Shown here piece by piece: positions 6,189 through 56,558 of a stretch of DNA of 64,000 bases. The DNA is from Pseudomonadota bacterium (GTDB taxonomy: Bacteria > Pseudomonadota > Alphaproteobacteria > UBA828), in contig JAQBTG010000003.1 of NCBI GenBank assembly GCA_027624955.1, positions 23,163-87,162 of the forward strand, written 5' to 3'. Made by a program: the position numbers and the translations under genes. Numbering within the stretch: position 1 is the first letter of the stretch; every line of letters starts with the position of its first letter. The notes below the pieces were generated by a model. That model was given only the letters and a program-made list of their open reading frames with translations, did not search any database and was not told the origin of the DNA.

Positions 6189-6357
6189 GTTGCACGTCGC
6201 ACTGAATTAGAGTATGGCCACGTCGTTCTGCATTTCAACTGTTTGAGCCGCATCTGCAGGCGTGCGCCCGAAAATATATCTGGGCGCTGGCAATCGGAGG
6301 CCATCGCGCCTCTCTCTTGGTGCGAATGGCATGGATTTGGTTTAGTATGGTTTTCCG

Positions 6358-7291: not shown

Positions 7292-7327
7292 CACCGGCCC
7301 ACATGTCCGTTTAGGCTGCCCAACACA

Positions 7328-9341: not shown

Positions 9342-9727
9342 ACCGGATGTTGCAGCGCCGATAGGCCAGGGGTCGAAGCGAACATCCAGCCACTGAACAG
9401 CAATTCCACCGACGTTCCCTGTCGTTTCTCGCGAATTTCGAGAAAGGCCGCGCTTTCGGGAGGTTCCTCGGGCGGTTTTTTGTGACAGGCCCGGGCAGTG
9501 ATTTCGAGCGTGCCGAAGACAACGGGAGTGTCTAATTCGGCAGTGAATTTCGATATCCGCGCGGTTACTTTGTCGAGACCCTGGAGCACTACGGCTGAGC
9601 GTTCCGCTGCTTGCAGGTTGAACGGCAACAACAGGAGCAAAGCCGCGATTGTCGCGATAGAGAGAGCCGCTGCATGACGATATTTACCGCGGTGCCAGCT
9701 CCCCGAGGCGCGGCTAATTATCCGCAC
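9281..9727 (-). CDS. Secreted DUF2155-family protein
   Basis: Signal peptide followed by FSGWMF...[11 protein letters not shown], matching the DUF2155 family often found near aat in alphaproteobacteria. GTG start in the track. 3' end overlaps aat by 60 nt. Confidence 0.6.
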
Positions 9728-9964
9728 CGAACGAAAGTTCGTATCGATCTACGGCAGCGACGCTGGTGCGCGAATAAGCGAAGGCAACGAACGCGCCGGC
9801 GACCACCAACACAAGCGCGCCCAAGAATGTTCCTAAGATGCTTCTCGACATGAAACTCTTTTCCGCTCAATCCAACGTAATGCCGATATTGCAGGGAGCA
9901 TTGTCCCTATCGCGACGATTGACAAGTCCCGCAAAAGGGATGCGCCGGGTGATCGCCGCGCGGG

Positions 9965-13437: not shown

Positions 13438-14349
13438 ATGACGCCCGAAAAGGTGTTGACCCACGCGCCTAAAATTCTGGACCAATCGGAGCGCGAATAT
13501 TTTTTCGAAACCGGATATCTGCTCAAGGAACGCTTTGTAAGCGAAGACTGGTTGGCGCGACTGTGGGAAGTGACCGAGCGCATGGTCGACGAAAGCCGAG
13601 GGTTGAGCACATCAAACGATAAGTTCGACCTAGAGCCGGCGCACACGGCGGATGCCCCCAAATTGCGCCGCCTTACCCAACCAGTCGACCATGACCCGGT
13701 ATATTGGGAGTTCGCGTCGAATTCGATGATTACCGATCTAGCCGAGGATTTACTCGGCCCGAACATCAAATTTCATCATTCGAAGCTCAATTTCAAATGG
13801 TTTGGCGGCGGCGAAGAGGTGAAATGGCACCAGGACATTCAATTTTGGCCGCACACCAATTTCAGCGTTCTGACGATTGGCGTCTATCTCGATGATGTCG
13901 ACGATGTGACGGGGCCGATGGGTGTCCTTCCCGGAAGCCACAAAGGCGAGCTATTTGATCAATATAATGGCGACAATCAGTGGGTTGGCTGCCTGAGCAA
14001 TCAAGATCTGAAAAAGGTCGAGTTGGACAAGGCGGTCTACATGAAAGGTCCGGCCGGCTCCGTCACCGTTCACCATTGCCGGGCGCTGCACGGCTCCATG
14101 GCCAACAATCATCCGAGCAAAGCGCGCCCGCTCCTGTTGAACGCTTTTTCCTCAGCCGATGCCTTGCCGATCACGCCCAATCCCACGCCGTCGCGCCATA
14201 ACGGCAGAATCGTACGCGGTGAGGCCGCGCGCTATGCCGAGTTCGACCCCTTCCCGGCCCGCCTGCCGCCGGATTGGTCCGGCGGCTACTCCTCCATTTT
14301 TGCACTCCAACAGGAAGATGACAAAAAAGCGGCCGGTATTAAGGGGTAA
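13438..14349 (+). CDS. Phytanoyl-CoA dioxygenase (PhyH) family Fe(II)/2-oxoglutarate dioxygenase
   Basis: 303 aa with a PhyH-like HxD...H region (HQDIQFWPHTNF...HHCRALHGS). GAGG RBS. Confidence 0.75.
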   Translation: MTPEKVLTHAPKILDQSEREYFFETGYLLKERFVSEDWLARLWEVTERMVDESRGLSTSNDKFDLEPAHTADAPKLRRLTQPVDHDPVYWEFASNSMITDLAEDLLGPNIKFHHSKLNFKWFGGGEEVKWHQDIQFWPHTNFSVLTIGVYLDDVDDVTGPMGVLPGSHKGELFDQYNGDNQWVGCLSNQDLKKVELDKAVYMKGPAGSVTVHHCRALHGSMANNHPSKARPLLLNAFSSADALPITPNPTPSRHNGRIVRGEAARYAEFDPFPARLPPDWSGGYSSIFALQQEDDKKAAGIKG

Positions 14350-41543: not shown

Positions 41544-41719
41544 TCCTGGAGACGATTTGTTATTATTTCACCGCCCGCCGGAAAAATCCCTATGAAAATG
41601 GTGGCTGTTCGCCGATTGCCGCCACGAATTGAAGCCGCTAAATTCATCGATGAGCTTGTCACCATCATCGGGCTTGGCTACAAGTGCCGGTAGGAATCGC
41701 CAAATATTGGGGCCAGTCG

Positions 41720-42691
41720 ATGCAGGTTATATTAGCGGAACCGAGGGGCTTTTGCGCCGGAGTAGAGCGCGCCATCGAAATCGTTGAGCGCGCAATCGAA
41801 GTTTATGGCGCACCGGTCTATGTGCGACATGAAATCGTCCACAACAAACGCGTCGTAGCTGAGCTTCGCGAAAAAGGCGCGATCTTCGTTGAGGAAGTGA
41901 GTGAGGTACCCGACGGCGCGGTGACGATCTTTAGTGCGCATGGCGTTGCCGAAAGCGTCGAAATCGAGGCGCGCAAACGCGGCCTGCCGGTGATAGATGC
42001 GACCTGCCCGCTCGTTGCCAAAGTCCATGTCGAGGCGCAGCGCTATGAATCTGATGGCGACGAAGTCATCCTGATCGGACATGAAGGCCACCCCGAAGTT
42101 GAAGGCACCAGCGGCCGGTTGCGCAAAGGACCACAGATTGTCGCGACGGCCGAAGATGTGCAGTCGGTCAGCGTGTCCAACCCCGACAAAGTGGCCTATG
42201 TCACCCAAACCACCCTTAGCGTCGATGATACACGCGAGGTTATCGAGGCGTTGAAAAAGCGCTTTCCGAAAATATCCGGCCCAGACGTCAAAGACATTTG
42301 CTACGCAACGCAAAACCGCCAGGCAGCCGTGCGAGCCCTTGCGGAAGACGTTCAACTCATCTTGGTGGTCGGAGCGCGCAACAGTTCCAACTCGAACCGC
42401 CTGCGCGAGATCGGCGAGGAAATGGGCGTGCCGACCTACCTCGTGGAAGATGCCAGCGATTTGAATCACGGCTGGTTTGCCGGCGTGGACCGGGTCGGCA
42501 TTACCGCCGGCGCCTCTTCGCCCGAGCAATTGGTGCGCGAATTATATGAGAAGCTGGGTGAATTTTCCGACGTCGAACTCAAATTCCAGGATGGCATCAA
42601 AGAGCGTGTGCGCTTTAAGTTGCCGGAAGAACTTGTCCGCGCGGGTGAAGATGGCCGCACGCCCGGCCATGAACAAATCACCGCACCCTAG
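41720..42691 (+). CDS. ispH: 4-hydroxy-3-methylbut-2-enyl diphosphate reductase
   Basis: [23 protein letters not shown] and the three conserved Cys of LytB. Start at the internal ATG. Confidence 0.9.
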
Positions 42692-42731: not shown

Positions 42732-43907
42732 ATGTCGGTACCTCTCATACAACAAATTCGCGTCGGCGCTTATGTGCTTTCGAAGCGCATCCGGCGGACC
42801 AAGCGCTATCCGTTAGTGCTCATGCTGGAACCGTTGTTCCGTTGCAACCTCGCCTGCCCCGGTTGCGGCAAGATCGATTACCCGGCGGCGATCCTCGATC
42901 AGCGCCTCAGCCTGGAAGACTGCCTGGCGGCGGTCGATGAATGCGGCGCGCCAATTGTTTCCATTCCGGGCGGCGAGCCACTGATTCATCCTGAGATGAA
43001 GCAGATCGTTGAAGGCATCGTGGCGCGCAAGAAATTCGTCTATCTCTGCACCAATGCCTTGTTGCTGGCCAAGAAACTCGATCAATACACGCCTAGCCCC
43101 TATTTGACTTTTTCGATCCATCTCGACGGCCTGGAAGAGGCACATGATAAGGCGGTCGCGCAAAAGGGAACTTTCAAACGCGCGGTTGCCGCGATCAAAG
43201 AGGCGCAAGCACGCGGCTTTCGTGTCAATGTGAATTCCACCCTATTCGACGGCCACGCGCCGGAGGAAGTGGCGGAGTTTTTCGATTTCGTTACCCATGA
43301 CCTAAAGATTGACGCCATCACCGTGTCGCCCGGCTACTCCTATGAGCGCGCGCCGGACCAAGAACATTTCTTAAACCGTTCAAAGACCAAGACTCTGTTT
43401 CGCGAGATATTTCGTCTCGGCCAAAATAAGAAATGGCGCTTCAGCCAATCCAGCCTGTTCCTCAATTTCCTCGCCGGCAACGAAACCTATGAATGCATGC
43501 CGTGGGGCAATCCGACCCGCAACATCTTCGGCTGGCAGAAGCCCTGTTATTTGTTGGGAGAGGGTTATACGGCGACCTTCCAAGAGCTCATGGAAGATAC
43601 GGAATGGGAAAAATACGGCACCGGAAAATATGATAAATGTGCCGATTGCATGGTTCATTGTGGTTATGAGGCGACCGCCGTCGAGGATACCTTGTCGAAC
43701 CCGTTGAAGGCACTTTGGGTGAATTTGCGCGGCGTCAAGACGACCGGGCCGCTCGCGCCCGAGATCGATTTGAAGAACGCTCGGCCGGCGGAGTATCTGT
43801 TTGAGACTCATGTCGAGACCATGCTCGAGGAAATCGAAGGTGGCGAAAATTCGCCGTCACCCGACGGAGCCAAAAAGCGGAGTGCTCAGGCGAGCCACGC
43901 GGCGTAA
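42732..43907 (+). CDS. hpnH: Hopanoid-biosynthesis radical-SAM protein HpnH (adenosylhopane synthase)
   Basis: CNLACPGCGK radical-SAM cluster motif within an HpnH-like 391-aa protein. Adjacent to ispH, hpnG and shc. Confidence 0.85.
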   Translation: MSVPLIQQIRVGAYVLSKRIRRTKRYPLVLMLEPLFRCNLACPGCGKIDYPAAILDQRLSLEDCLAAVDECGAPIVSIPGGEPLIHPEMKQIVEGIVARKKFVYLCTNALLLAKKLDQYTPSPYLTFSIHLDGLEEAHDKAVAQKGTFKRAVAAIKEAQARGFRVNVNSTLFDGHAPEEVAEFFDFVTHDLKIDAITVSPGYSYERAPDQEHFLNRSKTKTLFREIFRLGQNKKWRFSQSSLFLNFLAGNETYECMPWGNPTRNIFGWQKPCYLLGEGYTATFQELMEDTEWEKYGTGKYDKCADCMVHCGYEATAVEDTLSNPLKALWVNLRGVKTTGPLAPEIDLKNARPAEYLFETHVETMLEEIEGGENSPSPDGAKKRSAQASHAA

Positions 43908-44606
43908 CGCTAAGAAGGCGGTCCGCGCGTCCGGCGCCAACGACAACAGTCCGATGATCTCCCACGGTCGCACGACCAAACTTGCCAAAACAGCGCCAAT
44001 CGATATGGCGCCTTCTGGCGTTACCCCGGCCAAGGCCGATTTGGGAATATTTCTGCTGAACGGGTCGGAAATAACCCTTAGCACCACGAATGGTACGCCA
44101 GCGTCGCGCGCCACCGCGGCCACAGCATGGCTTTCCATATCGCAGGCCAGCGCCCCTGTATGCGTGAAAAGGCCAAGCTTCTCGGCCCGCGCCCGTACCG
44201 CCTGATTGACCCCGACAATCGCCCCACGCCAGCTGTCGTCACCGAGCACGCCAAGCAATTGGCCGGTCAGCTCCGGATCGGCCTGGAGACCGCCATCGTC
44301 GGCCGCCATCTCACGCAAAATGGAACTGTCATGTCCGTTTGGCAGCGGCTGATGCCAGGCAAACACGCGATCGGCAACGATGACCGATCCAGGGCCGAGG
44401 CGCGGATCGTGCCCGCCGGCAAGACCGAAGCTGACTAGAGATTCGGCGCCAGCGGAGAGCAGCTTTTGCGCCATTTCAACCGCGCGTGCCGTTCTAGCGC
44501 CTGAAATTTCAATGCGTTGTTCGATGCCGGAAGCCCTCAGGCAGCGCGCCTCATCTTGCAAACCGCAAATGAAGCCGGCGTTGCGAAAACCATCGGGCGC
44601 CGCCAT
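43857..44606 (-). CDS. hpnG: Hopanoid-associated phosphorylase/nucleosidase HpnG
   Basis: PNP/MTA-nucleosidase-like fold (ISGARTARAVE...LVSFGLAGG) 5 nt downstream of shc. 51-nt convergent overlap with hpnH. Confidence 0.8.
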   Translation of the reverse strand: MAAPDGFRNAGFICGLQDEARCLRASGIEQRIEISGARTARAVEMAQKLLSAGAESLVSFGLAGGHDPRLGPGSVIVADRVFAWHQPLPNGHDSSILREMAADDGGLQADPELTGQLLGVLGDDSWRGAIVGVNQAVRARAEKLGLFTHTGALACDMESHAVAAVARDAGVPFVVLRVISDPFSRNIPKSALAGVTPEGAISIGAVLASLVVRPWEIIGLLSLAPDARTAFLALRRVARLSTPLFGSVG

Positions 44607-44610
44607 GAAG

Positions 44611-46605
44611 CTACATTCCGTAAGGGGTTCGCGGGTCGTTGAGGTCCTTCAAGGAGCGGTAACGCGCTAGCGCCCAAAGCGGAAAATAGGCGCTATAGCC
44701 GTGGTAGCGAAGATAGAACACGCGCGGAAATCCGACGGCGGTAAATTCCGTTTCATCCCATTTTGGCCCGCTACGCTCGGCGCTAAGTAGAAAATTAACG
44801 CCACGTCGCACCGGCTCGCTGTTGGCTTTACCTGCGGCCAGAAGGGTGAGCACGGCCCAGGCGGTTTGCGACGGCGTGCTCAGTTTGGCGAAGGATTTCT
44901 CCGTCCGCTCAGGATAATAACTGTCCCCCGTTTCACCCCAACCACCATCACCGCGTTGTTTCGATTCAAGCCAGGCTACTGCCTTACGGACCGGCGCTGA
45001 GTCCGTATCTACTCCGGCGGCGGCAAGGGCGCATAAGACGGACCAGGTGCCATAAATATAATTTGTTCCCCAGCGGCCAAACCAGGAGCCATTCTCTTCC
45101 TGTTCGCGCAGCAAAAAATCGAGGCCCTTTTTCATCACGGGATGGTCTTCGGGATAACCGAGCTGCGCCAAAAAACTGATACAGCGTGCGCTCACATCGA
45201 CTGTTGGCGCATCAAGCAAGGCGCCGTGATCGGCAAACGGTATATGATTTAGGTAATATTTTTCGTTTTCTGCGTCGAACGAGCCCCAGCCGCCGTTCGA
45301 GCTTTGCATGGCTTCGATCCAGGCGGCGGCGCGGCGCACCGGCTTGCTGTATTTTTCCCGATCGGCGCGGTCGAGAGCCATGGCGACGACCGCCGTGTCA
45401 TCGACATCGGGATAGTAATCATTGTTATATTGAAAGGCCCATCCACCTGCTATCGCGTCGGGCCGCGTTTCAGCCCAATCCCCCTTAACGTCGGTAATCT
45501 GGCGCGCCACCATCCATTCGTTGGTCGTTCGCATGCTCTCGCCGTCCGGTTCTTCGCCGGCTTCCATCATCGCGAGCGCGGCGAGGCAAGTGTCCCAAAT
45601 GGGAGACACACAGGGCTGACAATATTGGCTACCGTCGGTGGGTTTGGTCAGCAGCAGGTCAAGCGAGCGCCGAACGGTCTTGCGGGTTTCATGCTCTTGC
45701 GGATAGCCGAGGCTGTCCAGAACCATCAGTAAATTAGCCATCGGCGGAAATATCGCGCCCAGTCCGTCCTCGCCATTCATGCGTGTCATGCACCACGCCA
45801 GCGCTCGGTCGATCCCGCGCCGGCGAAACGCCATCGGCATGATTTTTTCATAGCCCTTCAACAATCGGTCGATGCCGAGGAAGACCCGCCCTATGCCTCG
45901 CTGGCCCTGAAAATAGTGGCGCTCCTGGAATGCCGGGGTGACGAACAATTCGCGGATATCGATGTTGCGTGGATTCTTCGCCTGCGGACGAAGCGTCATG
46001 AGCGCAAGAAGCGGCACCAAGGTGGTGCGCGACCAATAAGAAATCTTGCTGAGGCTAAAGGGAAACCAGCGCGGAAAATACATGATCTCGATCGGCATCG
46101 ACGGGACCGCACGCCAGGGCACTTGGCCAAACAAGGCGAGCGTTGTGCGCGTAAACACATTGCAGCGCGCCGCGCCGCCATGCGCCAGAACGGCCTCGCG
46201 CGCCCTTTTCATATGTGGCGCTTCGGGGTCGTCGCCGACTAGCTTCAATGCCAAATAGGCTTTGACCGTGCAGCTGATATCGAATTCGCCGCCATGAAAG
46301 AGCGGCCACCCACCATGTGCGCCTTGGCGCGAGCGAATATATACTGCGAGCCGCGTTTCCACGACGTCGTCGATTTCATCGACAAAATGATTGAGCAGTA
46401 CATATTCGGAGGGGATCGTCGCATCGGCTTCGAGTTCGAACAGCCAATGCCCATCTTCGCGCCGCGCTCCACGCAATTCACGGGTGGCATCCTCTATGAC
46501 TCGTTGCAGGTCCTCATCGGACACGGAAACAAGTTTACTATGGTCAGCGGCCGCAACTGTTGCAGGGTTTTCGGCGCTCCGATGAAATTGCGAGACTTGG
46601 GTCAC
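44611..46605 (-). CDS. shc: Squalene-hopene cyclase
   Basis: 664 aa with the DVDDTAVV catalytic motif and multiple QW repeats. Confidence 0.95.
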   Translation of the reverse strand: MTQVSQFHRSAENPATVAAADHSKLVSVSDEDLQRVIEDATRELRGARREDGHWLFELEADATIPSEYVLLNHFVDEIDDVVETRLAVYIRSRQGAHGGWPLFHGGEFDISCTVKAYLALKLVGDDPEAPHMKRAREAVLAHGGAARCNVFTRTTLALFGQVPWRAVPSMPIEIMYFPRWFPFSLSKISYWSRTTLVPLLALMTLRPQAKNPRNIDIRELFVTPAFQERHYFQGQRGIGRVFLGIDRLLKGYEKIMPMAFRRRGIDRALAWCMTRMNGEDGLGAIFPPMANLLMVLDSLGYPQEHETRKTVRRSLDLLLTKPTDGSQYCQPCVSPIWDTCLAALAMMEAGEEPDGESMRTTNEWMVARQITDVKGDWAETRPDAIAGGWAFQYNNDYYPDVDDTAVVAMALDRADREKYSKPVRRAAAWIEAMQSSNGGWGSFDAENEKYYLNHIPFADHGALLDAPTVDVSARCISFLAQLGYPEDHPVMKKGLDFLLREQEENGSWFGRWGTNYIYGTWSVLCALAAAGVDTDSAPVRKAVAWLESKQRGDGGWGETGDSYYPERTEKSFAKLSTPSQTAWAVLTLLAAGKANSEPVRRGVNFLLSAERSGPKWDETEFTAVGFPRVFYLRYHGYSAYFPLWALARYRSLKDLNDPRTPYGM

Positions 46606-46635: not shown

Positions 46636-48549
46636 TTAGGCCCTCAAATCGGCCATCGCCGAATTGCTGCCCAGCGTCGCCAACGCTGTGTTGACGATAT
46701 CAATCGTCGTCAGGCCGGCATCCGCATACATGCCATCTGGCGTGCCGTGGGCGATGAAGCGGTCCGGCAAAGTCATCGGGCGAATTTTGAGGCCGTGGTC
46801 GAGCAAGCCGTCCTTGGCCAGGAATTGCAGGACATGCGCCGCGAATCCGCCAATAGCTCCTTCTTCAATGGTTATCATGACCTCATGCTCGCGCGCCAGA
46901 CGGCGAATCATGTCCTCATCCAAAGGCTTGGCGAAGCGGGCATCGGCGACGGTGCAAGAGAGACCATGCGCCTGCAATTCATCTGCCGCTTCGAGGCTCT
47001 CTTTCAAATGCGCACCGAACGAAAGGATCGCGATCGACGTTCCTTCGCGCAAAATGCGCCCCTTGCCGATTTCGAGCGCTGCGGGCATCTCGGGAATTTC
47101 AACGCCGGTTCCTTCGCCGCGCGGGTAGCGGAAGGCACAGGGGCGGTCATTGATCTCCACGGCGGTGCGCACCATGCGCGTCAATTCAGCCTCATCCGAC
47201 GCCGCCATAACGACGAATCCCGGTAAGGTGGAAAGATAGGTGATGTCGTAACTGCCGGCATGGGTCGGGCCATCCGCGCCGACCAGCCCTGCCCGATCGA
47301 TCGCAAAGCGCACCGGTAGGGATTGGATCGCGACGTCATGCACGATCTGATCGTAGGCGCGCTGCAGGAAAGTCGAATAGATCGTGACAAACGGCTTGAG
47401 CCCTTCAGTCGCCATACCGGCGGCAAAGGTAACTGCATGCTGCTCGGCAATGCCGACATCGAAAGCCCGGTCCGGAAATGCCTCGGTGAATTTATCGATG
47501 CCCGTGCCGCTCGGCATGGCGGCCGTAATGGCGACGATGCTTTCGTCGCGCTCGGCCTCCTTGATCAGCGCATTGGCGAAGACGTTGGTATAGCTCGGTG
47601 GTCCCGAGGCGCCCTTTTTTTGTTCGCCGGTGACGACATTGAATTTCGCCACGCCGTGATATTTATCGCTTGAACTTTCCGCCGGCTCGTAGCCCTTGCC
47701 CTTTTGCGTCACAACATGGATCAGCACCGGCCCGGGCGTTTCGTCGTCCTTGACGTTGTTGAGAATCGGAATCAGATGATCGATATTGTGACCGTCTACC
47801 GGGCCGATATAGTAAAAGCCCAACTCCTCGAACAAGGTGCCGCCGGTGACCATGCCGCGGCCATATTCCTCGACCTTGCGCGCCGCCTCGCCGACCGGCC
47901 GCGGCAGCTTCTTCGAAAAGTGCTTGGCGATCTCACGCAGGCTGCGATAGGAGTGGCTGGATAACAGGCGCGATAGATAGGCGTTGAGCGCACCCACAGC
48001 CGGCGCGATCGACATTTTATTGTCATTCAGGATGACGATCAGTCGGGCGTCCATGGCGCCGGCATTATTCATCGCTTCATAGGCCATGCCGCCGGTCATG
48101 GCGCCATCGCCGATGACGGAAATCACATTGCGTTTTTCACCCTTTAATTCGCGCGCCACTGACATCCCGAGGCCGGCAGAAATAGAAGTCGAGGAATGTG
48201 CCGCGCCAAACGGATCGAACTCGCTTTCGCTGCGCTTGGTGAACCCGTACAGCCCGCCTGGCTGACGAAGGGTGCGGATATTTTCGCGCCGTCCGGTCAG
48301 GATTTTATGTGGATAGGCCTGATGGCCAACATCCCAAATAAGGCGATCGTGCGGTGTATTGAATACATAATGGAGCGCGACGGTCAGCTCGACCACGCCG
48401 AGACCCGCGCCGAGATGGCCGCCGGTTACGGAAACCGCGTCGATCGTTTCCGTACGCAATTCGTCGCATACCTGCTTTATCTCTTTGATCGAGAATTGTT
48501 TAAGATCCTGCGGCGTATTCACACGATCCAGCAATGGCGTATCCGGCAT
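46636..48549 (-). CDS. dxs: 1-deoxy-D-xylulose-5-phosphate synthase
   Basis: 637 aa with a ThDP-binding GDG...N motif and a transketolase-like C-terminus. Typical Dxs N-terminus ([17 protein letters not shown]). Confidence 0.95.
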
Positions 48550-48701: not shown

Positions 48702-49631
48702 TTAAATACGGTAGGTGTATCTGAGGCCAAACGTATCCAGACCCTCATTATTTTCGTCAATGCCGGCGTTCGAAATATGATCGAGATGAAACGATAGGCC
48801 GTGATGCTCGTCGAACCGATAGCCGAACTCCAATGATTCGCGAAACAGCACCGGCAGGCCCAATTCCTTACGATCCAGTAAATCGGTATCGGTTTCACCG
48901 TCATGCAGCGCAAATCCCAGGCTGCCGCCGGCAAAAAGCCCCCAGCCCAGATCAAACATCCAGGTTCCGCCTACATAAAGCTGATTGGTGTTGCCGTCGG
49001 TGTTGTAGTGGCCGCCAATATGCGGCTCGGGGGACAATATGAAATCCCACAACCAGCCGCCAAATGGCGTGAATCGCAGTTCCATATTGACGTCTTTTCC
49101 GGATTCTTTGCGGTTTCCGAACACCCCGACATCATGTCCGCCGCCACCGATAACAATGGCGCTCAAGCCAAATCCCTCGTGCGATCGCTCTGGCTCACCA
49201 TAGGCCTCAGATGCGTCGGAATCGCCCGTTTGGGCCGATGTGCGCACCAAGAGTGAAGCGGATTGCGGGTTATTGGCTTCACGAAAGGCGAGATCTCTAT
49301 ATCCGGGAAAGGCTGCCACGACGGTAGTGGCGATATATTTTCTGTGGCGCGGCGCCGATGCCATCGCAGTTCGCAATATGGCGGTGGCGTGCTGAGGATG
49401 GTTGGCCAATGCCGATATGACCGCAGCGCTGAAACGCGCCGCCGACGCGCGGCGCTCAGAGGAAGACGTGGCCGCGCGCGTGTCGGCGAAGTCAGCGGCG
49501 CTGCCCGCCGCGGCTATTTCATGCAAGATACTGCCCTGCGCACCGGAGTCCTGTGCCGCCACCCCCCCGCTCAACATTGCGCCCAGGAATAGTGCGCCTG
49601 CCAGTACCATAATTCGCCGAATCATCGCCAT
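48702..49631 (-). CDS. Outer-membrane acyloxyacyl hydrolase (PagL-like lipid A deacylase) family protein with a long Ala/Ser-rich N-terminal extension
   Basis: Signal peptide, then about 110 aa of low complexity, then a beta-barrel-like domain ending HLDHISNAG...FGLRYTYRI (PagL-type H-x-S motif). Family assignment is from memory of the motif. Confidence 0.45.
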   Translation of the reverse strand: MAMIRRIMVLAGALFLGAMLSGGVAAQDSGAQGSILHEIAAAGSAADFADTRAATSSSERRASAARFSAAVISALANHPQHATAILRTAMASAPRHRKYIATTVVAAFPGYRDLAFREANNPQSASLLVRTSAQTGDSDASEAYGEPERSHEGFGLSAIVIGGGGHDVGVFGNRKESGKDVNMELRFTPFGGWLWDFILSPEPHIGGHYNTDGNTNQLYVGGTWMFDLGWGLFAGGSLGFALHDGETDTDLLDRKELGLPVLFRESLEFGYRFDEHHGLSFHLDHISNAGIDENNEGLDTFGLRYTYRI

Positions 49632-49737
49632 ACAAAACCCGCTTCCAACCCCAGTTTCACTGCGCTTGTAGTGTTTCGGCGTCTGCTTGGCAATTCAACG
49701 GAAAATTTCGAAAATATTTTGAATGATCCGTTCAGAA

Positions 49738-50166
49738 TCAAAACGGCAGCCGATCACGGCGCTTGTTGCGGTGGTAGGTCAGCGCCAACTCGATGCAATG
49801 GCGCAACGCTTCTTCAGGCGGATCTTTTTCGACGTCAAATTCAATGCATCTCTTACCGTCAAAGCGCAAAACATCCGAGTAGAATTCCCGGTAAGTCGCC
49901 AGTAGAGATGTCTGGCAGTGAACCATCATGCAATATCGCCCCGGTTTCGATTTGATTTGATCGACGCGGATTGTCGTGCCGCTTTTACTTTCGGTGGTGA
50001 GATAGCTTGGCTGACCCCACTTCACCGTTTCCTCTAGGGGGCCGACATCTTCGAGTTCCGCGGCCGTCGCAAATATGAGATGGCGCAATCGCATCAGTTT
50101 CGCTCTGAGCTTGCCGGGATAGGCGCCAAATATGTCTTTGACCTCTGAATTCTGAAAGGGTTCCAT
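49738..50166 (-). CDS. DUF1801-like small protein
   Basis: 142 aa resembling the YdhG/DUF1801 family. No catalytic motif recognised. Confidence 0.4.
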   Translation of the reverse strand: MEPFQNSEVKDIFGAYPGKLRAKLMRLRHLIFATAAELEDVGPLEETVKWGQPSYLTTESKSGTTIRVDQIKSKPGRYCMMVHCQTSLLATYREFYSDVLRFDGKRCIEFDVEKDPPEEALRHCIELALTYHRNKRRDRLPF

Positions 50167-50254
50167 AACCAGCCAATTCCAAGCACCATTTGTAGGCCGC
50201 GCGAATGTATCATGACCGGTGTCCGGGTAAAATCGGCAAAAGAATCATGCGATT

Positions 50255-50530
50255 TTGAAACCTGTCCTCCGTTGCATCACCACTGCGAAGCAGGCGGAAG
50301 CAAAAGAGATCACGCAGTCGCTATTGGAAGCGCGCCTGATCGCATCGGCGAACATCATCCCTGGCGTCGTTTCTCTCTACCGTTGGCACGGCAAAATTGA
50401 AGAGGCGGCAGTGCAGCAGACCGAGGCAATGCATAGCTACGAATGCCCAAGAATCCTTGTTCTACCGGTGGCGTCTGGCAGCCGGTGTTATTTCGATCGG
50501 ATTGCCGACGAGACTTGCGATTTGAAATAG
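50255..50530 (+). CDS. cutA: CutA-family divalent-cation tolerance protein, apparently with an internal deletion
   Basis: N-terminal (LRCITTAKQAEAKEITQSLLEARLIASANIIPGVVSLYRWHGKIEE) and C-terminal (HSYECPRILVLPVASGSRCYFDRIADE) CutA blocks are present. About 20 aa between them seem to be missing. Confidence 0.55.
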   Translation: MKPVLRCITTAKQAEAKEITQSLLEARLIASANIIPGVVSLYRWHGKIEEAAVQQTEAMHSYECPRILVLPVASGSRCYFDRIADETCDLK

Positions 50531-51507
50531 CCGTTTTGGCCGAACCAATGGATCGCCTCCGTCAGCGCTTGTTCGGCCGAGCGCGACGAAAACCCTAATT
50601 CCTGAGCAGCCTTTTGAGACGAGAAGAACATGTGCTTTCGCGCCATTTTCAGAGAATCCACGGTCAATCGGGTTTCGGTGCCGGTTACACGGCACCACCC
50701 TTCGGCGACATAGGCTAGCGGCATGAGAAGACGGTTCGGTAGGCGCAAACCCGGCGCCGGGCGGCCGGTGATGCGCCCGAGGGCGAGCAGAATATCGCGC
50801 AAAGTCAGGTTCTCACCGCCGAGAATATAGCGTTCTCCCGATTTTCCGCGTTCGAACGCAAGCAGGTGGCCGCGCGCGCAATCGTCGACATGCACCAGAT
50901 TGAGACCGGTATCGACATAGGCCGGCATGCGGCCATTGACGAAATCAACAATGATCCGCCCGGTTGGCGTCGGTTTGATATCGCGTGCACCGATCGGCGC
51001 GGTGGGATTGACGATCACTGCCGGCAGGCCGTCACGAACGACCATCTCGCGCACCGCTTGCTCGGCGAGATATTTCGAGCGCTTGTAATGGCCGGTCATA
51101 TCGCCGACGCCGACCGGCAGGTCTTCGTCGGCGGGTGTCCCGTCCTTGGTGAGGCCGAGCACGGCAACGCTGGAGGTATAGACGATGCGGGCCACACCAG
51201 CCTCTCCCGCCGCGCGCATTAAATTTCGCGTGCCTTCCACGTTGATGTCATAAATTTCCTTCGGCTTCGGGATCCACAGGCGGTAATCCGCAGCGACGTG
51301 ATAGAGGGCATCGCAACCTTTCGCCGCCGCCTTGAGCGAAGCGCTATCGGTGAGATCGCCGGTCACGCGCTCGATGTCGAGACCTTCGATATTGCGGCTG
51401 TCGCTTGCGCCGCGGACAAGCGCGCGGACTTCTCGGCCCTCGGCCACAAGCAAACGCACCACGGCGGAGCCGAGAAATCCGGTTGCGCCGGTGATCAGCG
51501 TGGTCAT
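50488..51507 (-). CDS. hpnA: Hopanoid-associated NAD-dependent sugar epimerase/dehydratase HpnA
   Basis: MTTLITGATGFLGSAVVRLL Rossmann motif and YxxxK (YKRSKY) SDR catalytic motif, 339 aa. The 655-aa track ORF is an upstream run-on. Start ATG overlaps the stop of the upstream CDP-alcohol transferase (ATGA). Confidence 0.8.
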   Translation of the reverse strand: MTTLITGATGFLGSAVVRLLVAEGREVRALVRGASDSRNIEGLDIERVTGDLTDSASLKAAAKGCDALYHVAADYRLWIPKPKEIYDINVEGTRNLMRAAGEAGVARIVYTSSVAVLGLTKDGTPADEDLPVGVGDMTGHYKRSKYLAEQAVREMVVRDGLPAVIVNPTAPIGARDIKPTPTGRIIVDFVNGRMPAYVDTGLNLVHVDDCARGHLLAFERGKSGERYILGGENLTLRDILLALGRITGRPAPGLRLPNRLLMPLAYVAEGWCRVTGTETRLTVDSLKMARKHMFFSSQKAAQELGFSSRSAEQALTEAIHWFGQNGYFKSQVSSAIRSK

Positions 51508-52163
51508 TCGGGCGCGGTTCTTTGTGGCCAGAATATTTCGCGGCGGTAGCGGATAAGCGCCCATACCCCGAACAACGGCGCGCCGATCGTGGCCAGAATA
51601 AGTATCGGTATGAGGCCGCCACCCCAGATCGCCGGGCCGATCAGATACAGCACATCTTCGACCTCGAAGCCGGCATAGCGCGGCAGGCCGGCTTGCTTCT
51701 GTCCCATGCGGGTTTCGAGATATTGGAACAGGGCGAACAGGCCGCTGACCGAAATACCGGCGATGATTCCCATGATCCAGGCGGCGTCGCCAAGCCAGGA
51801 ATCGGACAAGCCGATACCGATCGACACGAACAGAAAGATATGGACCACCACATCGGAAGCGAGATCGTAGAGATGGCCGATGCGGCTGCTTTTGCCGCTC
51901 AGGCGTGCCAACTCGCCATCCATGTGGTCGACAAAATTGGAGAGCGCGAACAGCCCTGCCCCCCAATGGATCAGCGGTGTCTCGCCATAGGCCAGGCAAC
52001 CGCAAGCGCCCAGCCCCGATAACAGGCGCAAAGTGGTGATGTGATTGGGCGTGACCCGTGTACGCACCAAGGGGCGCACCAAAAAGCGCGCGATGCGCTG
52101 GTCCCACGGTCCCTTGCGCTGCGCCTTCTCCGGGCTCTGTTCTAGTTGCGGTCGATCGGTCAT
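51504..52163 (-). CDS. CDP-alcohol phosphatidyltransferase family membrane protein
   Basis: Signature D-x2-D-G-x2-A-R-x8-G-x3-G-x3-D present as DHMDGELARLSGKSSRIGHLYDLASD. Several TM helices. Translationally coupled to hpnA. Confidence 0.8.
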   Translation of the reverse strand: MTDRPQLEQSPEKAQRKGPWDQRIARFLVRPLVRTRVTPNHITTLRLLSGLGACGCLAYGETPLIHWGAGLFALSNFVDHMDGELARLSGKSSRIGHLYDLASDVVVHIFLFVSIGIGLSDSWLGDAAWIMGIIAGISVSGLFALFQYLETRMGQKQAGLPRYAGFEVEDVLYLIGPAIWGGGLIPILILATIGAPLFGVWALIRYRREIFWPQRTAPE

Positions 52164-52278
52164 GCGGGTAAGGGCGATGCGGTTGCGCCGAATAAGCGGG
52201 TGAGCTAAGAGCGTGGCATATGATTATCCGCGACGAAGTGCATGCGCTGCAACAGCTTCCTGCCGGGAGGCGAGTGCC

Positions 52279-53025
52279 ATGCGGGCCGTGATATTCGCCG
52301 CCGGCCTTGGTAGCCGGCTCGGCGGTGCGGCGGAAGATATGCCCAAGGTCTTGCTGCGCTTCGCCAACAGAAGCCTGCTGGAACGGCATCTCACCCAACT
52401 CGGCGCTCTGGGCATCGAGGAAATCACCCTCGGCGTCGGACATGGCGCGGCCCATATCGCGGCCGAGCTAGCGCGCCTGAATGCCGGAAAAGTGGAACTG
52501 GTGCACAACCCGGATTACCGCGAAGGCAGTGTCGTCACCATGGCGGTACTTGAGCGTGCGATGACACGCGGCGGCGATGTTCTTCTCATGGACGGCGACG
52601 TGCTCTACGACCGACGCATGTTGGAACGGTTGCTCGCCAGCCCACACCGAAACCTCTTTCTGTTGGACCGCGACGTCGAACCTGGCGAGGAGCCAATGAA
52701 ACTCGCAATTGCCGCTGGCCATCCGGTAGATTTTCGAAAAATCTTGGAACGGGCGCATGAATATTACGGTGAGTCGGTCGGTTTCTTCCGCTTCGATGAA
52801 TCCGCGGCGCGAGACCTCTCGGCGGCGGCCCGACAAATCATCTCCAAGGGCGGACGCAGTGATTACATGGAGGAAGCCATCCGCGACGTGCTCCTCGTCT
52901 CACCCAAAGGCCGTTTCGGCTTCGAGGACATCACCGGCCTGCCCTGGATCGAAATCGATTTCGCCGCGGATCTGGCGCGGGCGGAGAACGAAATCCTGCC
53001 GCGACTGATTGCGGTAGACCGCTAA
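52279..53025 (+). CDS. Nucleotidyltransferase (GxGxR NTP-transferase fold; putative phospho-alcohol cytidylyltransferase)
   Basis: MRAVIFAAGLGSRLG N-terminal motif typical of LicC/IPCT/RmlA-like NTP transferases. Start at the ATG with a GGGAGG RBS. The track start is GTG at 52213. Divergent from the CDP-alcohol transferase. Confidence 0.75.
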   Translation: MRAVIFAAGLGSRLGGAAEDMPKVLLRFANRSLLERHLTQLGALGIEEITLGVGHGAAHIAAELARLNAGKVELVHNPDYREGSVVTMAVLERAMTRGGDVLLMDGDVLYDRRMLERLLASPHRNLFLLDRDVEPGEEPMKLAIAAGHPVDFRKILERAHEYYGESVGFFRFDESAARDLSAAARQIISKGGRSDYMEEAIRDVLLVSPKGRFGFEDITGLPWIEIDFAADLARAENEILPRLIAVDR

Positions 53026-53043
53026 CTCTCTGGACCGTTAACT

Positions 53044-53949
53044 CTAAAGTGTGCGCAGCAGGGCCGAAAAGACCATCGATAATTTCTGCAGCTTGCCGAA
53101 TTTGATGCGCGGGCCGTCGACTCGAAACCCGCCGGCTTCGATCCGGTCGAGATAGGGTTCGTAAACGCCGCGCATCAGCAGTGCCGGGCGCATACGGCGG
53201 CGCTCTGAAGTCGGCATGGCGCGAGCGGCCTCAAGAAAACGCCGGCGCGCCATCGCACCGACCTCGGCGCAAACTTTCTCTACGCCGGGTGCATGGATGA
53301 TCTCATCCGGCGTGACGTTCTCCAGCCCGTGTTTGGCGAGCAGTTCGGCCGGTAGATAGATGCGCCCGCGCTCGGCATCCTCGGCCACATCGCGCAGGAT
53401 ATTAGTGAGCTGAAAGGCATGCCCGAGATGGAGGGCGAAGTCCGGGATAGCGGGTGAGCGATAGCCGAATATCTCTACCGAGAGCAAGCCGACGCAGCAC
53501 GCGACGCAATAACAGTAGCGCTCCAATTCGGCCAGAGTGGGACGCAGCATGGCGCCCGAACGATCCATCTCGAAGCCTTCGAGAATGTCGAGAAATAGAC
53601 CCTTCGATAATCCGTAGCGCTCTATCGGTGTGACCAGTGCGTGGCTCACCGGATGGTTGGGATGCCCGGCGAACAGCGCTTCGATCTCCTCCGCCCAGGC
53701 CTTGATTAGCGCGCTGGAAAGGGCGGAATCCTCGATCTCGTCGGCGACATCGTCGGTTTCTCGGCAGAACGCGTACAGCGCCAGCATGGCTTCGCGCCTG
53801 GGCCGCGGCAGTAGCATCATGGGCAAAAAGAAAGACGAGCCTGACGCGCGCGTCACTTCGGCGACATATTGTTTGGGATCGTCGGTCGCCGGTATCGGCA
53901 GGCCGTCAAAATCCGTCGGCAGATTTCCCGCCTGATCGGCGCTTACCAT
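53044..53949 (-). CDS. hpnD: Presqualene diphosphate synthase HpnD (squalene/phytoene synthase family)
   Basis: Trans-isoprenyl diphosphate synthase head-to-head fold with Asp-rich motifs (FCRETDDVADE...). Second of two tandem SQS-like genes. C/D assignment by gene order only. Confidence 0.7.
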   Translation of the reverse strand: MVSADQAGNLPTDFDGLPIPATDDPKQYVAEVTRASGSSFFLPMMLLPRPRREAMLALYAFCRETDDVADEIEDSALSSALIKAWAEEIEALFAGHPNHPVSHALVTPIERYGLSKGLFLDILEGFEMDRSGAMLRPTLAELERYCYCVACCVGLLSVEIFGYRSPAIPDFALHLGHAFQLTNILRDVAEDAERGRIYLPAELLAKHGLENVTPDEIIHAPGVEKVCAEVGAMARRRFLEAARAMPTSERRRMRPALLMRGVYEPYLDRIEAGGFRVDGPRIKFGKLQKLSMVFSALLRTL

Positions 53950-53956
53950 GGCCGCC

Positions 53957-54811
53957 TCACCATGCGCCGAGAATGCCGCGCAGGCCACAGGCCAGCCAGC
54001 CAGCTTTGCTCACCTCGACGCGCCCGGCAATCGGATCTTCCCGCCTTAGCCGACCCGCCAATGCCCAAGCGAGCTTGAGGATAAATGCGCTCTCCCAGCG
54101 CAGGCCACGGCGGCGCACGCTGCGCGGCATCGCGTCGGCGCGCCGCAACAATGTTTCAGTCTCGTCCAGGCAACGGTCGATCACCCGGCGCACCGCCGGT
54201 GTCGCGCTGTCCAGCCTCAGATCTTCAACGCTGCCGCCAGCCTCCTTGAGCCACGGCTCAGGCAAATATACGCGGTCGAGCGCCAGATAGTCCTTTTTGC
54301 AATCTTGCAAATGATTGAGCATCTGCAAGGCGCAACAAAGCGCGTCCGAGCCCTCGATATCCGCGTCTCGCTCCCCGTGAATGTCCAACATCACTCGGCC
54401 GACGGACGCCGCGGAGCGCATGCAATAATCGATCAAATCAGCCCAGTCGTGATAGCGCAGCTTAGTTGCGTCCTGGATGAAGGCGGAAAGCAGATCGCGC
54501 CCATTGGCCGGCGTTTTGCCGCTCGCCAGCAAGCTTTGATGATAGGGCAGCGCCCAGTCCGGCAGGGACGTCTCATCGACACCAAGGGCGCGTTGCACCG
54601 CCTTGAGCCGCGTCACTTTCTCCGGCGCCGTGATATCCGGTGAATCGGCAATATCGTCGGCTTGGCGGGCGAATATATAGAAGGCATGAACGTGCGGGCG
54701 AAACTCGCGCGGGATAAGAAATGATCCGACAGGAAAATTTTCCGTATTGGCGTCGATCAATTGCCGCGCATTTTCGCCGGGTTCGATTTGATCCGCCATC
54801 CGCCTGGTCAT
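53957..54811 (-). CDS. hpnC: Hydroxysqualene synthase HpnC (squalene/phytoene synthase family)
   Basis: ENFPVGSFLIP...YIFARQADDIADSPD motifs. First of the tandem pair. Start at the ATG with a GGTGG RBS. Confidence 0.7.
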   Translation of the reverse strand: MTRRMADQIEPGENARQLIDANTENFPVGSFLIPREFRPHVHAFYIFARQADDIADSPDITAPEKVTRLKAVQRALGVDETSLPDWALPYHQSLLASGKTPANGRDLLSAFIQDATKLRYHDWADLIDYCMRSAASVGRVMLDIHGERDADIEGSDALCCALQMLNHLQDCKKDYLALDRVYLPEPWLKEAGGSVEDLRLDSATPAVRRVIDRCLDETETLLRRADAMPRSVRRRGLRWESAFILKLAWALAGRLRREDPIAGRVEVSKAGWLACGLRGILGAW

Positions 54812-54879
54812 TTTGCCACCAGCCACATTAACTGCCATCAATATCAATAATAAAAAATCGTCGGAAACATTTGATAATT

Positions 54880-56097
54880 TTAAAGTTTTGAGATTTTCTC
54901 TGCGGCGGAAATACGCGTTTGAGCGTCAATCTGTTTGACCACATCGATCGATGTCACAGGGCCCGCTTCATGGCTCTCAAGACATGATTCGACGACGCGC
55001 GGGATATCCATAAAGCCGATATTTCTGTCGAGGAAGCCGCGCACCGCGACTTCGTTGGCAGCATTGAGAACAATCGCCGCCGACGCGCCATCATTCAACG
55101 CCTCTTGCGCCAGCCGCAAACAGGGAAAGCGTTGCAAATCAGGCTTTTCGAAGGTCAATGTTGCCATCTCGGCTAGGTCAAGCTTGGCGCTCGGCGTGCT
55201 GATGCGCTCCGGCCACGCCAGTGAATAGGCGATTGGCGTTCGCATATCAGGCGTCCCTAGTTGGGCCAGGACGGAGCCGTCGATATATTCAACCATGCTG
55301 TGAATCACTGACTGCGGGTGCACCAACACGTCGATCTGGGCCACGGACACCGGAAACAGATGAAAGGCCTCTATCATCTCCAGGCCCTTGTTCATCATGG
55401 TCGCCGAATCGACGCTGATTTTCGCCCCCATATCCCAATTGGGATGGGCAACCGCCTGCTCCGGCGAAGCGTTGACCATATGCTCCATATCAGCTTTGCG
55501 GAACGGCCCGCCAGAAGCCGTCAGGATAATGCGCGCAACGCTAGCCTCGCGCTTGAAATCAAACACCTGGAAGATGGCGTTATGCTCGGAATCGACCGGC
55601 AGCAGTGTCGCGCCGGCGCGCGTTACTTCGCGTAACATCAATTCGCCGGCGCAAACCAGGCATTCTTTGTTGGCCAGGCCGACGATGGCGCCGCGCTTGA
55701 CTGCCGCCATGGTCGGGCCAAGACCGGCGGCGCCGACAATCCCGGCCATCACGAAGTCAGCCGACGCGGCAGCGGCATCTTCCACCGCCTCGGGCCCCGC
55801 CGCGACACTGATATTCGTTCCTGAGAGCGCGTCCTTCAGGTCCTGATAGCGGCTAGAGTCTGCGGTGACGGCCATTTTTGCGCCGGTCAGCCGGGCTTGC
55901 TCAGCCAACAGCTCGATATTGCTGTGCGCCGTCAATGCCTCAACCGTAAAGGAGCCCTTATGCCGCTGCAGGAGGTCGATGGTACTTCTGCCGATCGAGC
56001 CGGTTGAGCCCAATATCGTGACGCTGCGCGGCTCCGTGTCGCGAAGAGGCAGGTTGACGCTCGCCGTATCGCTGGCAATTTTCGCCGCCGCATCCAT
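54880..56097 (-). CDS. dxr: 1-deoxy-D-xylulose 5-phosphate reductoisomerase
   Basis: VTILGSTGSIGRSTIDLL NADPH-binding N-terminus. 405 aa from the internal ATG. The track ORF begins further upstream. Confidence 0.9.
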   Translation of the reverse strand: MDAAAKIASDTASVNLPLRDTEPRSVTILGSTGSIGRSTIDLLQRHKGSFTVEALTAHSNIELLAEQARLTGAKMAVTADSSRYQDLKDALSGTNISVAAGPEAVEDAAAASADFVMAGIVGAAGLGPTMAAVKRGAIVGLANKECLVCAGELMLREVTRAGATLLPVDSEHNAIFQVFDFKREASVARIILTASGGPFRKADMEHMVNASPEQAVAHPNWDMGAKISVDSATMMNKGLEMIEAFHLFPVSVAQIDVLVHPQSVIHSMVEYIDGSVLAQLGTPDMRTPIAYSLAWPERISTPSAKLDLAEMATLTFEKPDLQRFPCLRLAQEALNDGASAAIVLNAANEVAVRGFLDRNIGFMDIPRVVESCLESHEAGPVTSIDVVKQIDAQTRISAAEKISKL

Positions 56098-56219
56098 TAT
56101 GTAACCACCACAGACCACACCCCTTCCGGCGTTGGAGTGACCGGTTGCCGCGATTCTCTCAACAGCTTGCACGTGACGCAACATAAAATGGCTTATATGA
56201 GGTTCTAGGAGAAGAGATC

Positions 56220-56558
56220 ATGGATTTGACGCAACATAACTGCATCCCCTGCCGCAGTGGAGCAGCGCCTCTGGAGCCCTCCTCAGCGCGACAATTACTT
56301 GCCAGCGCGCCGGGCTGGGAATTGCTCGACGATGCCACCAAAATTAGGCGCAAATTCAAACTTAGCGATTTCGCCGCCACTTTGGCGTTCGTCAACAAAA
56401 TCGGCGCGCTTGCCGAAGCCGAAAGCCACCACCCAGATATCAGCTTCGGATGGGGCTATTGCAGCGTTTTGTTCTACACCCACAAGATCAAGGGTCTACA
56501 CCAGAATGATTTCATCATGGCTGCCAAGGTCAATGAATTGGTGGGCGATGGGGCCTAG
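56220..56558 (+). CDS. phhB: Pterin-4-alpha-carbinolamine dehydratase
   Basis: 112 aa with the [EDKH]-x3-H-[HN]-P motif (AESHHPDISF). GGAG RBS. Confidence 0.85.
   Translation: MDLTQHNCIPCRSGAAPLEPSSARQLLASAPGWELLDDATKIRRKFKLSDFAATLAFVNKIGALAEAESHHPDISFGWGYCSVLFYTHKIKGLHQNDFIMAAKVNELVGDGA

Follow-up and report, generated by a model that had tools for sequence, protein, structure and literature searches.

In a 64-kb stretch of an alphaproteobacterial genome of the UBA828 lineage (assembly GCA_027624955.1, contig JAQBTG010000003.1, positions 23,163 to 87,162; hereinafter the window), the genes for a CDP-alcohol phosphotransferase and a divergently oriented PntC/LicC-type cytidylyltransferase are located between hpnA and hpnD/hpnC, inside a cluster of hopanoid and methylerythritol phosphate (MEP) pathway genes. 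Judging from sequence comparison, the two enzymes are intact representatives of their families, are functionally paired and share a gene neighbourhood and, in some lineages, a polypeptide with hopanoid-family proteins; in many lineages, the pair also sits with genes for the biosynthesis of 2-aminoethylphosphonate (AEP). By homology and position in the tree, the window pair is assigned to a branch, without a nearby pepM, of the enzyme pair at the core of the 'Group 1 phosphonolipid' clusters (Yu et al. 2013, as relayed by Li & Horsman 2022, PMC8942020), which are the same as the 'Burkholderiales_CDP-OH' families. It is likely that the two enzymes transfer a small head group, activated with cytidine triphosphate (CTP), to a membrane lipid. 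We further propose, with a probability of roughly 0.5, that the pair is a head-group module belonging to the hopanoid gene set, with an extended hopanoid as the acceptor.

An original prediction, made from the DNA and its translated reading frames, had described a CDP-alcohol phosphatidyltransferase gene that overlaps hpnA and a divergent nucleotidyltransferase gene as a two-step pathway, CTP activation followed by transfer to a lipid alcohol. All these elements lie where they had been placed and both family assignments hold, and neither family corresponds to a named hpn gene or appears in the two 2025 hopanoid surveys consulted. The core of the locus is as follows.

50488-51507, minus strand: hpnA, an extended short-chain dehydrogenase/reductase, hopanoid-associated 'sugar epimerase', 339 aa (TIGR03466)
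51504-51507, minus strand: ATGA overlap of the transferase TGA and the hpnA ATG (read from the sequence)
51504-52163, minus strand: CDP-alcohol phosphotransferase, 219 aa (PF01066)
52164-52278, no strand: divergent intergenic region, 115 nt, between the transferase and cytidylyltransferase genes
52279-53025, plus strand: PntC/LicC-type cytidylyltransferase, 248 aa (NTP_transf_3)

The transferase and its overlap with hpnA

The open reading frame (ORF) at 51504-52163 carries DHMDGELARLSGKSSRIGHLYDLASD and matches the Pfam family CDP-OH_P_transf (PF01066) with 51.6 bits, against a cut-off of 22. The catalytic motif, D79-x2-D82-G-x2-A-R-x8-G96-x3-D100-x3-D104, is complete, is invariant in an alignment of 14 diverse homologues and is also retained across the window's clade and the pepM-linked clade described below. 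The AlphaFold2 model of the protein (pLDDT 82.5, pTM 0.77) has a six-transmembrane (six-TM) fold with an N-terminal interfacial helix; in a Foldseek search, the best match to this model is AF2299 (4o6n; TMq 0.72, rmsd 3.0), followed by IPCT-DIPPS (0.66) and, lower down, phosphatidylinositol phosphate (PIP) synthases and CEPT1/CHPT1. The protein is a PF01066 member and is predicted to be a membrane phosphotransferase that releases cytidine monophosphate (CMP).

It is highly improbable that a housekeeping enzyme of phospholipid synthesis (PgsA, PssA, Pcs or PIP synthase) and an unrelated nucleotidyltransferase have come to lie here by chance, even though automatic labels at JGI name some homologues 'phosphatidylglycerophosphate synthase' or 'archaetidylinositol phosphate synthase'. 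With the transferase, all of the specific NCBIfam equivalogs stay far under their cut-offs: pgsA gives 27.3 bits vs 109.1, pssA 19.3 vs 107, ClsA 21.8 vs 240, PIP synthase 32.6 vs 170 and AIP synthase 52.5 vs 180. The IPCT/DIPPS model NF041135 (cut-off 580) gives 31 bits with the transferase and 52.9 bits with the nucleotidyltransferase. Furthermore, the pairing with the nucleotidyltransferase is conserved and, in the protein P0252, takes the form of a fusion, and no relative of the pair in the 104 loci analysed below lies beside pgsA-, pcs- or pssA-type genes.

At the junction with hpnA, the minus strand reads ...GCGCCCGAATGACCACG..., where the transferase stop codon TGA (51506-51504) and the hpnA start codon ATG (51507-51505) share a 4-nt ATGA overlap. 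The stop codon of the transferase gene overlaps the start of hpnA in 18 of 22 distinct loci (16 ATGA and two one-nucleotide overlaps) that span Alphaproteobacteria and Gammaproteobacteria, the gammaproteobacterial locus L076 being a member of the pepM-linked clade, and the overlap is also found in the more distant loci L086 and L087. Because the overlap is conserved, translational coupling of the two genes, which the original prediction had considered almost certain, is plausible. The downstream protein is an HpnA by the curated model (TIGR03466, 503 bits vs 367.65), with weaker matches to the SdmB, OleD and thioester-reductase models and with Pfam matches to Epimerase, 3Beta_HSD and NAD_binding_4. 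A 655-aa ORF at 50488-52455 was rejected as a gene; it is the hpnA frame, which stays open upstream in GC-rich DNA.

The cytidylyltransferase

The product of the divergent ORF includes MRAVIFAAGLGSRLG and scores 50.6 bits with NTP_transf_3, against a cut-off of 27; it carries AAGLGSRLG, the GxGxR loop for CTP, and MDGDVLYD with the metal-binding Asp. The gene starts at the ATG at 52279 and not at a GTG at 52213: the ATG is preceded at 8 nt by a GGGAGG Shine-Dalgarno sequence, matches the homologues that start with MRA[VI]I and agrees with the gene callers. The spacer between the two genes is therefore 115 nt. This divergent region presumably holds the promoters of both genes, but it has no match to the sigma-70 consensus. 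Terminator-like signals were at the background level, and no RNA family was detected with Rfam in 49500-56500 (E <= 0.1).

Among solved structures, this enzyme comes closest to the PntC domain of Tde1415 (6PD1; E 2.4e-13, residues 2-244), whereas LicC (E 9.6e-4) and IPCT (E 5.7e-3) are about ten orders of magnitude worse, so that the analogy to IPCT/DIPPS or inositol-lipid synthesis, one of those drawn in the original prediction, loses weight. PntC of Treponema denticola Tde1415 has been biochemically characterised as an enzyme that cytidylylates AEP (Rice et al. 2019). The likeness to PntC spans the head-group half of the protein too. The motifs MD[GA]DVLYD, GESVGFFR, EEA[IV]RD and PWIEIDF are common to the window enzyme and the stand-alone PntC of pepM clusters. 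All conspicuous motifs are shared between the nucleotidyltransferases of the window's clade and the pepM-linked clade, whose substrates are probably identical or closely similar. Of the two residues that contact AEP in Tde-PntC, Glu104 is replaced by Asp in all members of both clades, and the region of Glu196 aligns ambiguously with a conserved EE motif. The PGAP label of the window protein is 'phosphocholine cytidylyltransferase family protein'.

A different substrate is conceivable, namely, a hopanyl-ribose-1-phosphate produced by HpnG through phosphorolysis of adenosylhopane, which the nucleotidyltransferase would convert into a CDP-linked sugar lipid, the counterpart of CDP-diacylglycerol; HpnA would then modify this lipid, and the transferase would move the phospho-ribosylhopane to a polar alcohol. 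This scheme would make use of the phosphorylase family membership of HpnG and of the NDP-sugar epimerase/dehydratase fold of HpnA, several members of the CDP-alcohol family do use a lipid-linked CDP donor, and Group 1 clusters encode two nucleotidyltransferase domains, which might leave the stand-alone domain free for another function. Nevertheless, we regard it as improbable: the full-length match of the nucleotidyltransferase is to PntC, and sugar-1-phosphate transferases match it only over the N-terminal NTP-binding part of about 110 residues; the enzyme is soluble and lacks any membrane segment, an uncommon property where the substrate is linked to a lipid; and in the Burkholderiales and Nostoc clusters the pair is far from hpnG.

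Relatives of the pair and their gene neighbourhoods

A survey of one genome per species yielded at least 550 loci encoding a relative of the transferase, of which 80 were analysed together with 18 metagenome loci and several loci reached via homologues; the counts given here are over 104 loci that are not phylogenetically independent. Both proteins have hundreds of homologues in several phyla, with 45-95% identity; given this spread and the retention of the hpnA overlap in 18 of 22 loci, the pair in the window is not a product of chance. The nucleotidyltransferase is encoded in 82 of the 104 loci, at least one Hpn-family gene in 68 and pepM in 36, the pair in these 36 loci being part of a pepM/ppd/aept cluster. 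The two-step logic of activation and transfer is supported by the conservation of the pair, together with its fusion in P0252. The 36 loci that lack an Hpn-family neighbour consist of 33 cyanobacterial loci and 3 short contigs, whereas all non-cyanobacterial loci of useful length have such a neighbour, from the families HpnA, HpnL, HpnN, HpnM, HpnH and squalene-hopene cyclase (SHC); HpnA adjoins the pair in 40 loci. In L014-type loci, the trio of the transferase, hpnA and the nucleotidyltransferase is retained among unrelated genes, suggesting that it travels as a unit. The neighbourhood named in the original prediction as speaking against it, with pairs mainly beside ordinary phospholipid genes, did not turn up; nearly all non-cyanobacterial relatives lie beside Hpn-family genes.

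A neighbour-joining tree, considered together with gene context, includes three groups. The first, the window's clade, consists of the window, about 35 alphaproteobacterial loci and L051 from an uncultured bacterium. In this clade, the nucleotidyltransferase gene is divergent, with the sole exception of L051 where it is co-directional, hpnA is directly downstream of the transferase gene, and these genes are usually flanked by dxr-hpnC-hpnD at one end and PagL-dxs-shc-hpnG-hpnH-ispH at the other.

The second group, the pepM-linked clade, has members in Burkholderiales, Nostocales, Gemmatimonadota, Nevskia, Salinisphaera and Chromatiales, with an operon that encodes the transferase, a 2-oxoglutarate-dependent (2OG) oxygenase, sometimes HpnL, the nucleotidyltransferase, PepM fused to a second nucleotidyltransferase (PepM::NT), Ppd and AEP transaminase (AEPT). 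In the Burkholderiales clusters, the gene annotated LPG_synthase_TM is identified as HpnL with the curated model (354 bits vs 195.65). In Salinisphaera aquimarina (L079), a single strand encodes, in this order, a fusion of squalene synthase and SHC, HpnG, HpnN, the transferase, HpnA, a 168-aa ORF, a 2OG oxygenase, HpnL, the nucleotidyltransferase, PepM::NT, Ppd, AEPT and HpnH. The first of these genes (3561-6566, plus strand) is a 1001-aa ORF in which a squalene/phytoene-synthase domain is joined to a complete squalene-hopene cyclase (789 bits with TIGR01507).

In most Nostocales loci, a gene for a B12-binding radical-SAM/DUF4070 protein is conserved upstream of the transferase gene (6201-7868 in L035); its best match, to the PhpK P-methyltransferase family, is weak (75.9 bits vs 600). 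The identification of the Nostoc gene upstream of the transferase as HpnP or HpnR, which would have placed a hopanoid gene beside the cyanobacterial pair, was ruled out (HpnR, 42.5 bits vs 650).

The third, more distant group (L085-L087) has, in this order, the nucleotidyltransferase, the transferase, HpnA, sometimes HpnL, and a second transferase. In L086, which represents an abundant marine population, the order is Ppd, PepM::NT, HpnM, HpnN, nucleotidyltransferase, transferase, HpnA, HpnL, second transferase, IspH, HpnH, HpnG and SHC, with overlapping reading frames. L087 encodes HpnM, nucleotidyltransferase, transferase, HpnA, second transferase, IspH, HpnH, HpnG and SHC, and its 8-kb flanks contain no HpnN, HpnL, PepM or Ppd. 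L085 encodes PepM::NT, Ppd, HpnN, HpnL, nucleotidyltransferase, transferase and a PagL-like protein, and there is no HpnA, HpnH or SHC in the part of the locus in view. Scores above the curated cut-offs were obtained for HpnL, HpnN, HpnM and HpnA in L079, L085 and L086, including all four of the Hpn proteins tested in L086; L087 was tested for HpnM only. Among distant relatives, PepM and the cytidylyltransferase occur on contigs of the same size (P0218/P0422, 33,845 nt; P0189/P0433, 9,650 nt; P0225/P0391, 343,906 nt); no such pairing was seen for the window's clade among the PepM matches listed, which are the best 120 of at least 8000.

Paired transferases that lack the fourth Asp of the catalytic motif, with Ala or Gly in its place, are encoded in L051, L086 (8755-9405 and 11574-12269) and L087 (8790-9416 and 10420-11022), in the order nucleotidyltransferase, transferase, HpnA, in some cases HpnL, and second transferase. 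This loss raises the question of whether such transferases are active or form heterodimers.

Fusion proteins

A profile search of 1.84 billion representative proteins identified several fusions that involve the transferase. P0252 is a transferase::nucleotidyltransferase fusion encoded in a cluster with PepM::PntC, Ppd, AEPT and HpnM, and in P0254 the transferase is fused to a 2OG oxygenase. Fusions with HpnL occur in both orders (P0258 and P0353; scores of 334 and 260 bits vs the HpnL cut-off of 195.65), and P0288 combines the transferase with HpnN (805.6 bits vs 751.85).

Other architectures include the transferase fused to a SCO1/SenC domain (P0289, 427 aa) and a tandem double transferase (P0241, 407 aa). 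In L107, a PhyH gene (7213-7980) is directly upstream of the gene for the transferase::nucleotidyltransferase fusion, in place of the HalD-like 2OG oxygenase of other clusters.

The proposed pathway and the identity of the acceptor

In the pathway that we propose, the soluble PntC/LicC-type enzyme would use CTP to activate a small phosphorus-containing amine, yielding CMP-AEP or, in the pepM-less clade, possibly a CDP-amino-alcohol. In the relatives, the activated amine would be AEP or its 1-hydroxy form; in the window's branch, AEP might be made elsewhere or imported, or the substrate might be a phosphate ester such as phosphoethanolamine. The phosphodiester envisaged in the original prediction would accordingly have to be amended, at least for the relatives, to a phosphonate ester, their head group being probably a phosphonate. 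At the cytoplasmic face of the membrane, a lipid hydroxyl would then attack the activated phosphorus in the six-TM transferase, with the release of CMP. The favoured acceptor is an extended hopanoid polyol, for example, with the C-35 hydroxyl of bacteriohopanetetrol as the attacking group. HpnA, which has similarity to aldehyde and thioester reductases and which the original prediction had suggested as a source of the alcohol, may make or modify this acceptor, conceivably by NAD(P)H-dependent reduction of ribosylhopane, a conjecture that would address a gap noted in a 2025 hopanoid survey, where no enzyme is named for the conversion of ribosylhopane into bacteriohopanetetrol. In the relatives only, HpnL might act as a flippase for the product, as MprF does for its own lipid, and HpnN and HpnM would export it outward. 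The proposals made here for the head group, its acceptor and what HpnA does all come from sequence and gene context.

Taken as a whole, and more tentatively, these steps would amount to a Kennedy-type pathway dedicated to hopanoids that builds a hopanoid 'phospholipid': a bacteriohopanetetrol-type molecule whose terminal hydroxyl is esterified with AEP or, perhaps, with phosphoethanolamine in the pepM-less marine clade, with HpnA acting on the acceptor, HpnL flipping and HpnN/HpnM exporting the product, which would also be the product of the Group 1 clusters.

The main alternative, which we consider less likely than a hopanoid acceptor, is a Kennedy-type route in which the same two enzymes move AEP, phosphoethanolamine or phosphocholine to diacylglycerol; the location in hopanoid clusters would then reflect co-regulated envelope remodelling, and HpnL, HpnN and HpnM would handle the glycerolipid too. 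Diacylglycerol is the acceptor predicted in the phosphonate literature, where the homologous Group 1 cluster is named for a phosphonolipid (PMC8942020), it is used by the solved relatives CEPT1 and CHPT1, and it would suit the Nostocales clusters without Hpn neighbours. This route leaves unexplained, however, the coupling to HpnA that is conserved across classes and the stand-alone trio, the fusions with HpnL and HpnN, and the insertion of the pair between HpnN and HpnH/SHC in several independent arrangements. Moreover, no such glycerolipid has been found in Burkholderia in spite of the abundance of the clusters and the detection of ppm expression (PMC8942020).

Several observations weigh against the proposed pathway. 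The gene neighbourhood as such fits a hopanoid acceptor and diacylglycerol equally well. In the 2025 survey, hpnA is present in most hopanoid producers without the pair, and coupling is no proof of a shared substrate. We found no phosphorus-bearing hopanoid in the literature searched, and no lipid product of any member of the family has been isolated according to the account in PMC8942020. In the window's clade (about 35 loci), there is no pepM, ppd, aept, 2OG oxygenase or hpnL gene within 10 kb, and a tblastn search of the 64-kb window detected none of these and no hpnN or hpnM. In the Nostocales branch (33 loci), only L023 has an Hpn neighbour, so that the family may not act on hopanoids everywhere. 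Finally, the HpnN fusion comes from one 3.6-kb contig only.

Organization of the window locus

The genes that surround the core of the locus are listed below, with scores against model cut-offs.

41684-42691, plus strand: ispH (IspH model, 475 bits vs 420)
42732-43907, plus strand: hpnH (HpnH model, 556 bits vs 225)
43857-44606, minus strand: hpnG-like phosphorylase (HpnG model, 169.1 bits vs 187.1, slightly under the cut-off)
44611-46605, minus strand: shc (SHC model, 771 bits vs 431)
46636-48549, minus strand: dxs (Pfam domains)
48702-49631, minus strand: PagL-like outer-membrane protein (Pfam PagL, 63 bits)
49738-50166, minus strand: DUF1801 protein
50255-50530, plus strand: cutA (CutA1 family)
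53044-53988, minus strand: hpnD, squalene synthesis, start codon approximate (TIGR03465, 294 bits vs 278.6)
53957-54847, minus strand: hpnC, squalene synthesis, start approximate (TIGR03464, 245.5 bits vs 250.45, slightly under the cut-off)
54880-56184, minus strand: dxr, MEP pathway, last gene of the cluster on this side (Pfam DXP_reductoisom domains)

The hpnG-like gene and hpnC are in the expected positions despite their scores below the cut-offs. The MEP pathway genes ispH, dxs and dxr are interspersed among the hopanoid genes, a layout that is retained across the window's clade, and the nearest relatives of the window sequence, which is identical to that of a 141-kb scaffold from a marine metagenome, are alphaproteobacterial metagenome-assembled genomes. 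The CutA1-family ORF is convergent with hpnA, and the two share 43 nt at the hpnA 3' end. The PagL-like gene between hpnA and dxs is present in every window-clade locus that is long enough, with 48-86% identity, and in L085 an unrelated-looking PagL gene (9390-9902, minus strand) adjoins the transferase gene; the PagL-like protein may be a further member of the module. Pfam searches of ten further ORFs in the 1-21 kb region of the window found ordinary metabolism and nothing related to phosphonates. A PhyH-family 2OG dioxygenase is encoded at 13438-14349 (plus strand), 38 kb from the pair, and is probably unrelated to it.

Known and new aspects

Both superfamilies, the biochemistry of PntC and the Group 1 cluster with its hpnL-like gene were already known, as were remarks on a link between shc and pepM: hybrid clusters of these genes, with an unknown product, have been flagged by others in Roseomonas and Nitrosococcus. 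The suggestion, in the original prediction, that the modification is undescribed stands for the product, which has not been isolated, and holds only in part for the genes, since their relatives, CDP-OH and PntC, are already on record from the predicted Group 1 clusters. The pepM-less clade in hopanoid clusters, the conserved coupling to HpnA and the fusions with HpnL and HpnN were not found in the literature searched, nor were these genes encountered in the hopanoid papers covered. The 2025 hopanoid surveys list HpnA, HpnB, HpnL and HpnM as proteins without a known function, and according to one of them, hpn clusters have no additional candidates in their vicinity. The operons, the coupling and the fusions join these two bodies of work, the hopanoid literature, in which HpnA and HpnL have no function, and the phosphonate literature, in which the cluster has no product.

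The proposed acceptor yields a testable prediction, a hopanoid that bears a phosphorus head group. If such a molecule exists, it would represent a new class of bacteriohopanepolyols for biomarker work and would reveal a lipid as a sink of phosphonate or phosphorus in the sea. Functions would be assigned to HpnA and HpnL, and the Group 1 phosphonolipid product of Burkholderia, Cupriavidus and their relatives would be a hopanoid, not a glycerolipid.

Comparison with known systems

The closest known system is the Group 1 phosphonolipid cluster, which accounts for 318 of the 882 ppm neighbourhoods, including that of Burkholderia pseudomallei, and is predicted to make a 1-hydroxy-AEP lipid that, by the account in PMC8942020, has never been isolated; its seven-gene core includes Ppm::PntC, Ppd, AEPT, a 2OG oxygenase and HpnL (PMC8942020), and a Nostoc version has been described as well (PMC5987646). 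The window pair shares with this cluster the transferase subfamily (45-55% identity and an identical motif) and a stand-alone PntC-like enzyme (47-50% identity), the two forming sister clades in one tree, and both are known from genomics alone. In contrast, the 64-kb window lacks Ppm::PntC, Ppd, AEPT, the 2OG oxygenase and HpnL, its cytidylyltransferase gene is divergent instead of co-directional, and its transferase is apparently coupled to hpnA, with the pair located between hpnA and hpnD/hpnC.

With PntC (6PD1/6PD2) and LicC (1JYK), the window cytidylyltransferase shares the fold family, the GxGxR(L) loop, the Asp of MDGDVLYD and, as far as the ambiguous alignment there allows, an acidic EE motif in the head-group half. 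It differs from Tde-PntC in the low overall identity, in the replacement of Glu104 by Asp, as in LicC, and in the absence of both an AEPT fusion and an adjacent pepM. For the transferase, the best sequence and fold matches are IPCT/DIPPS of Archaeoglobus (4MND) and AF2299 (4O6M/N); the two-enzyme logic is the same, and the fusion of the transferase to the nucleotidyltransferase recurs in the relative P0252. However, the acceptor of IPCT/DIPPS is a soluble inositol phosphate, whereas the window transferase has no cytosolic domain and no inositol-phosphate synthase was seen nearby.

The Kennedy-pathway enzymes CEPT1 (8GYW) and CHPT1 (8ERO) likewise transfer an activated small amine head group to a lipid hydroxyl with the same catalytic motif, but these are much larger proteins with about 10 TM segments that use diacylglycerol, and the partners of the window enzyme are hopanoid-family proteins. 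Treponema has a LicCA/CPT route to phosphatidylcholine, and eukaryotic ethanolamine phosphotransferases use CMP-AEP.

The last parallel is MprF, the lysyl-phosphatidylglycerol synthase and flippase. Its chemistry is different, with aminoacyl-tRNA as the donor instead of CDP-alcohol transfer, and the window has no hpnL. Nevertheless, HpnL is homologous to the TM flippase region of MprF (PF03706), and the transferase::HpnL fusions of the relatives resemble MprF in that a head-group synthase is joined to a flippase, for what would be in both cases an amine-bearing lipid.

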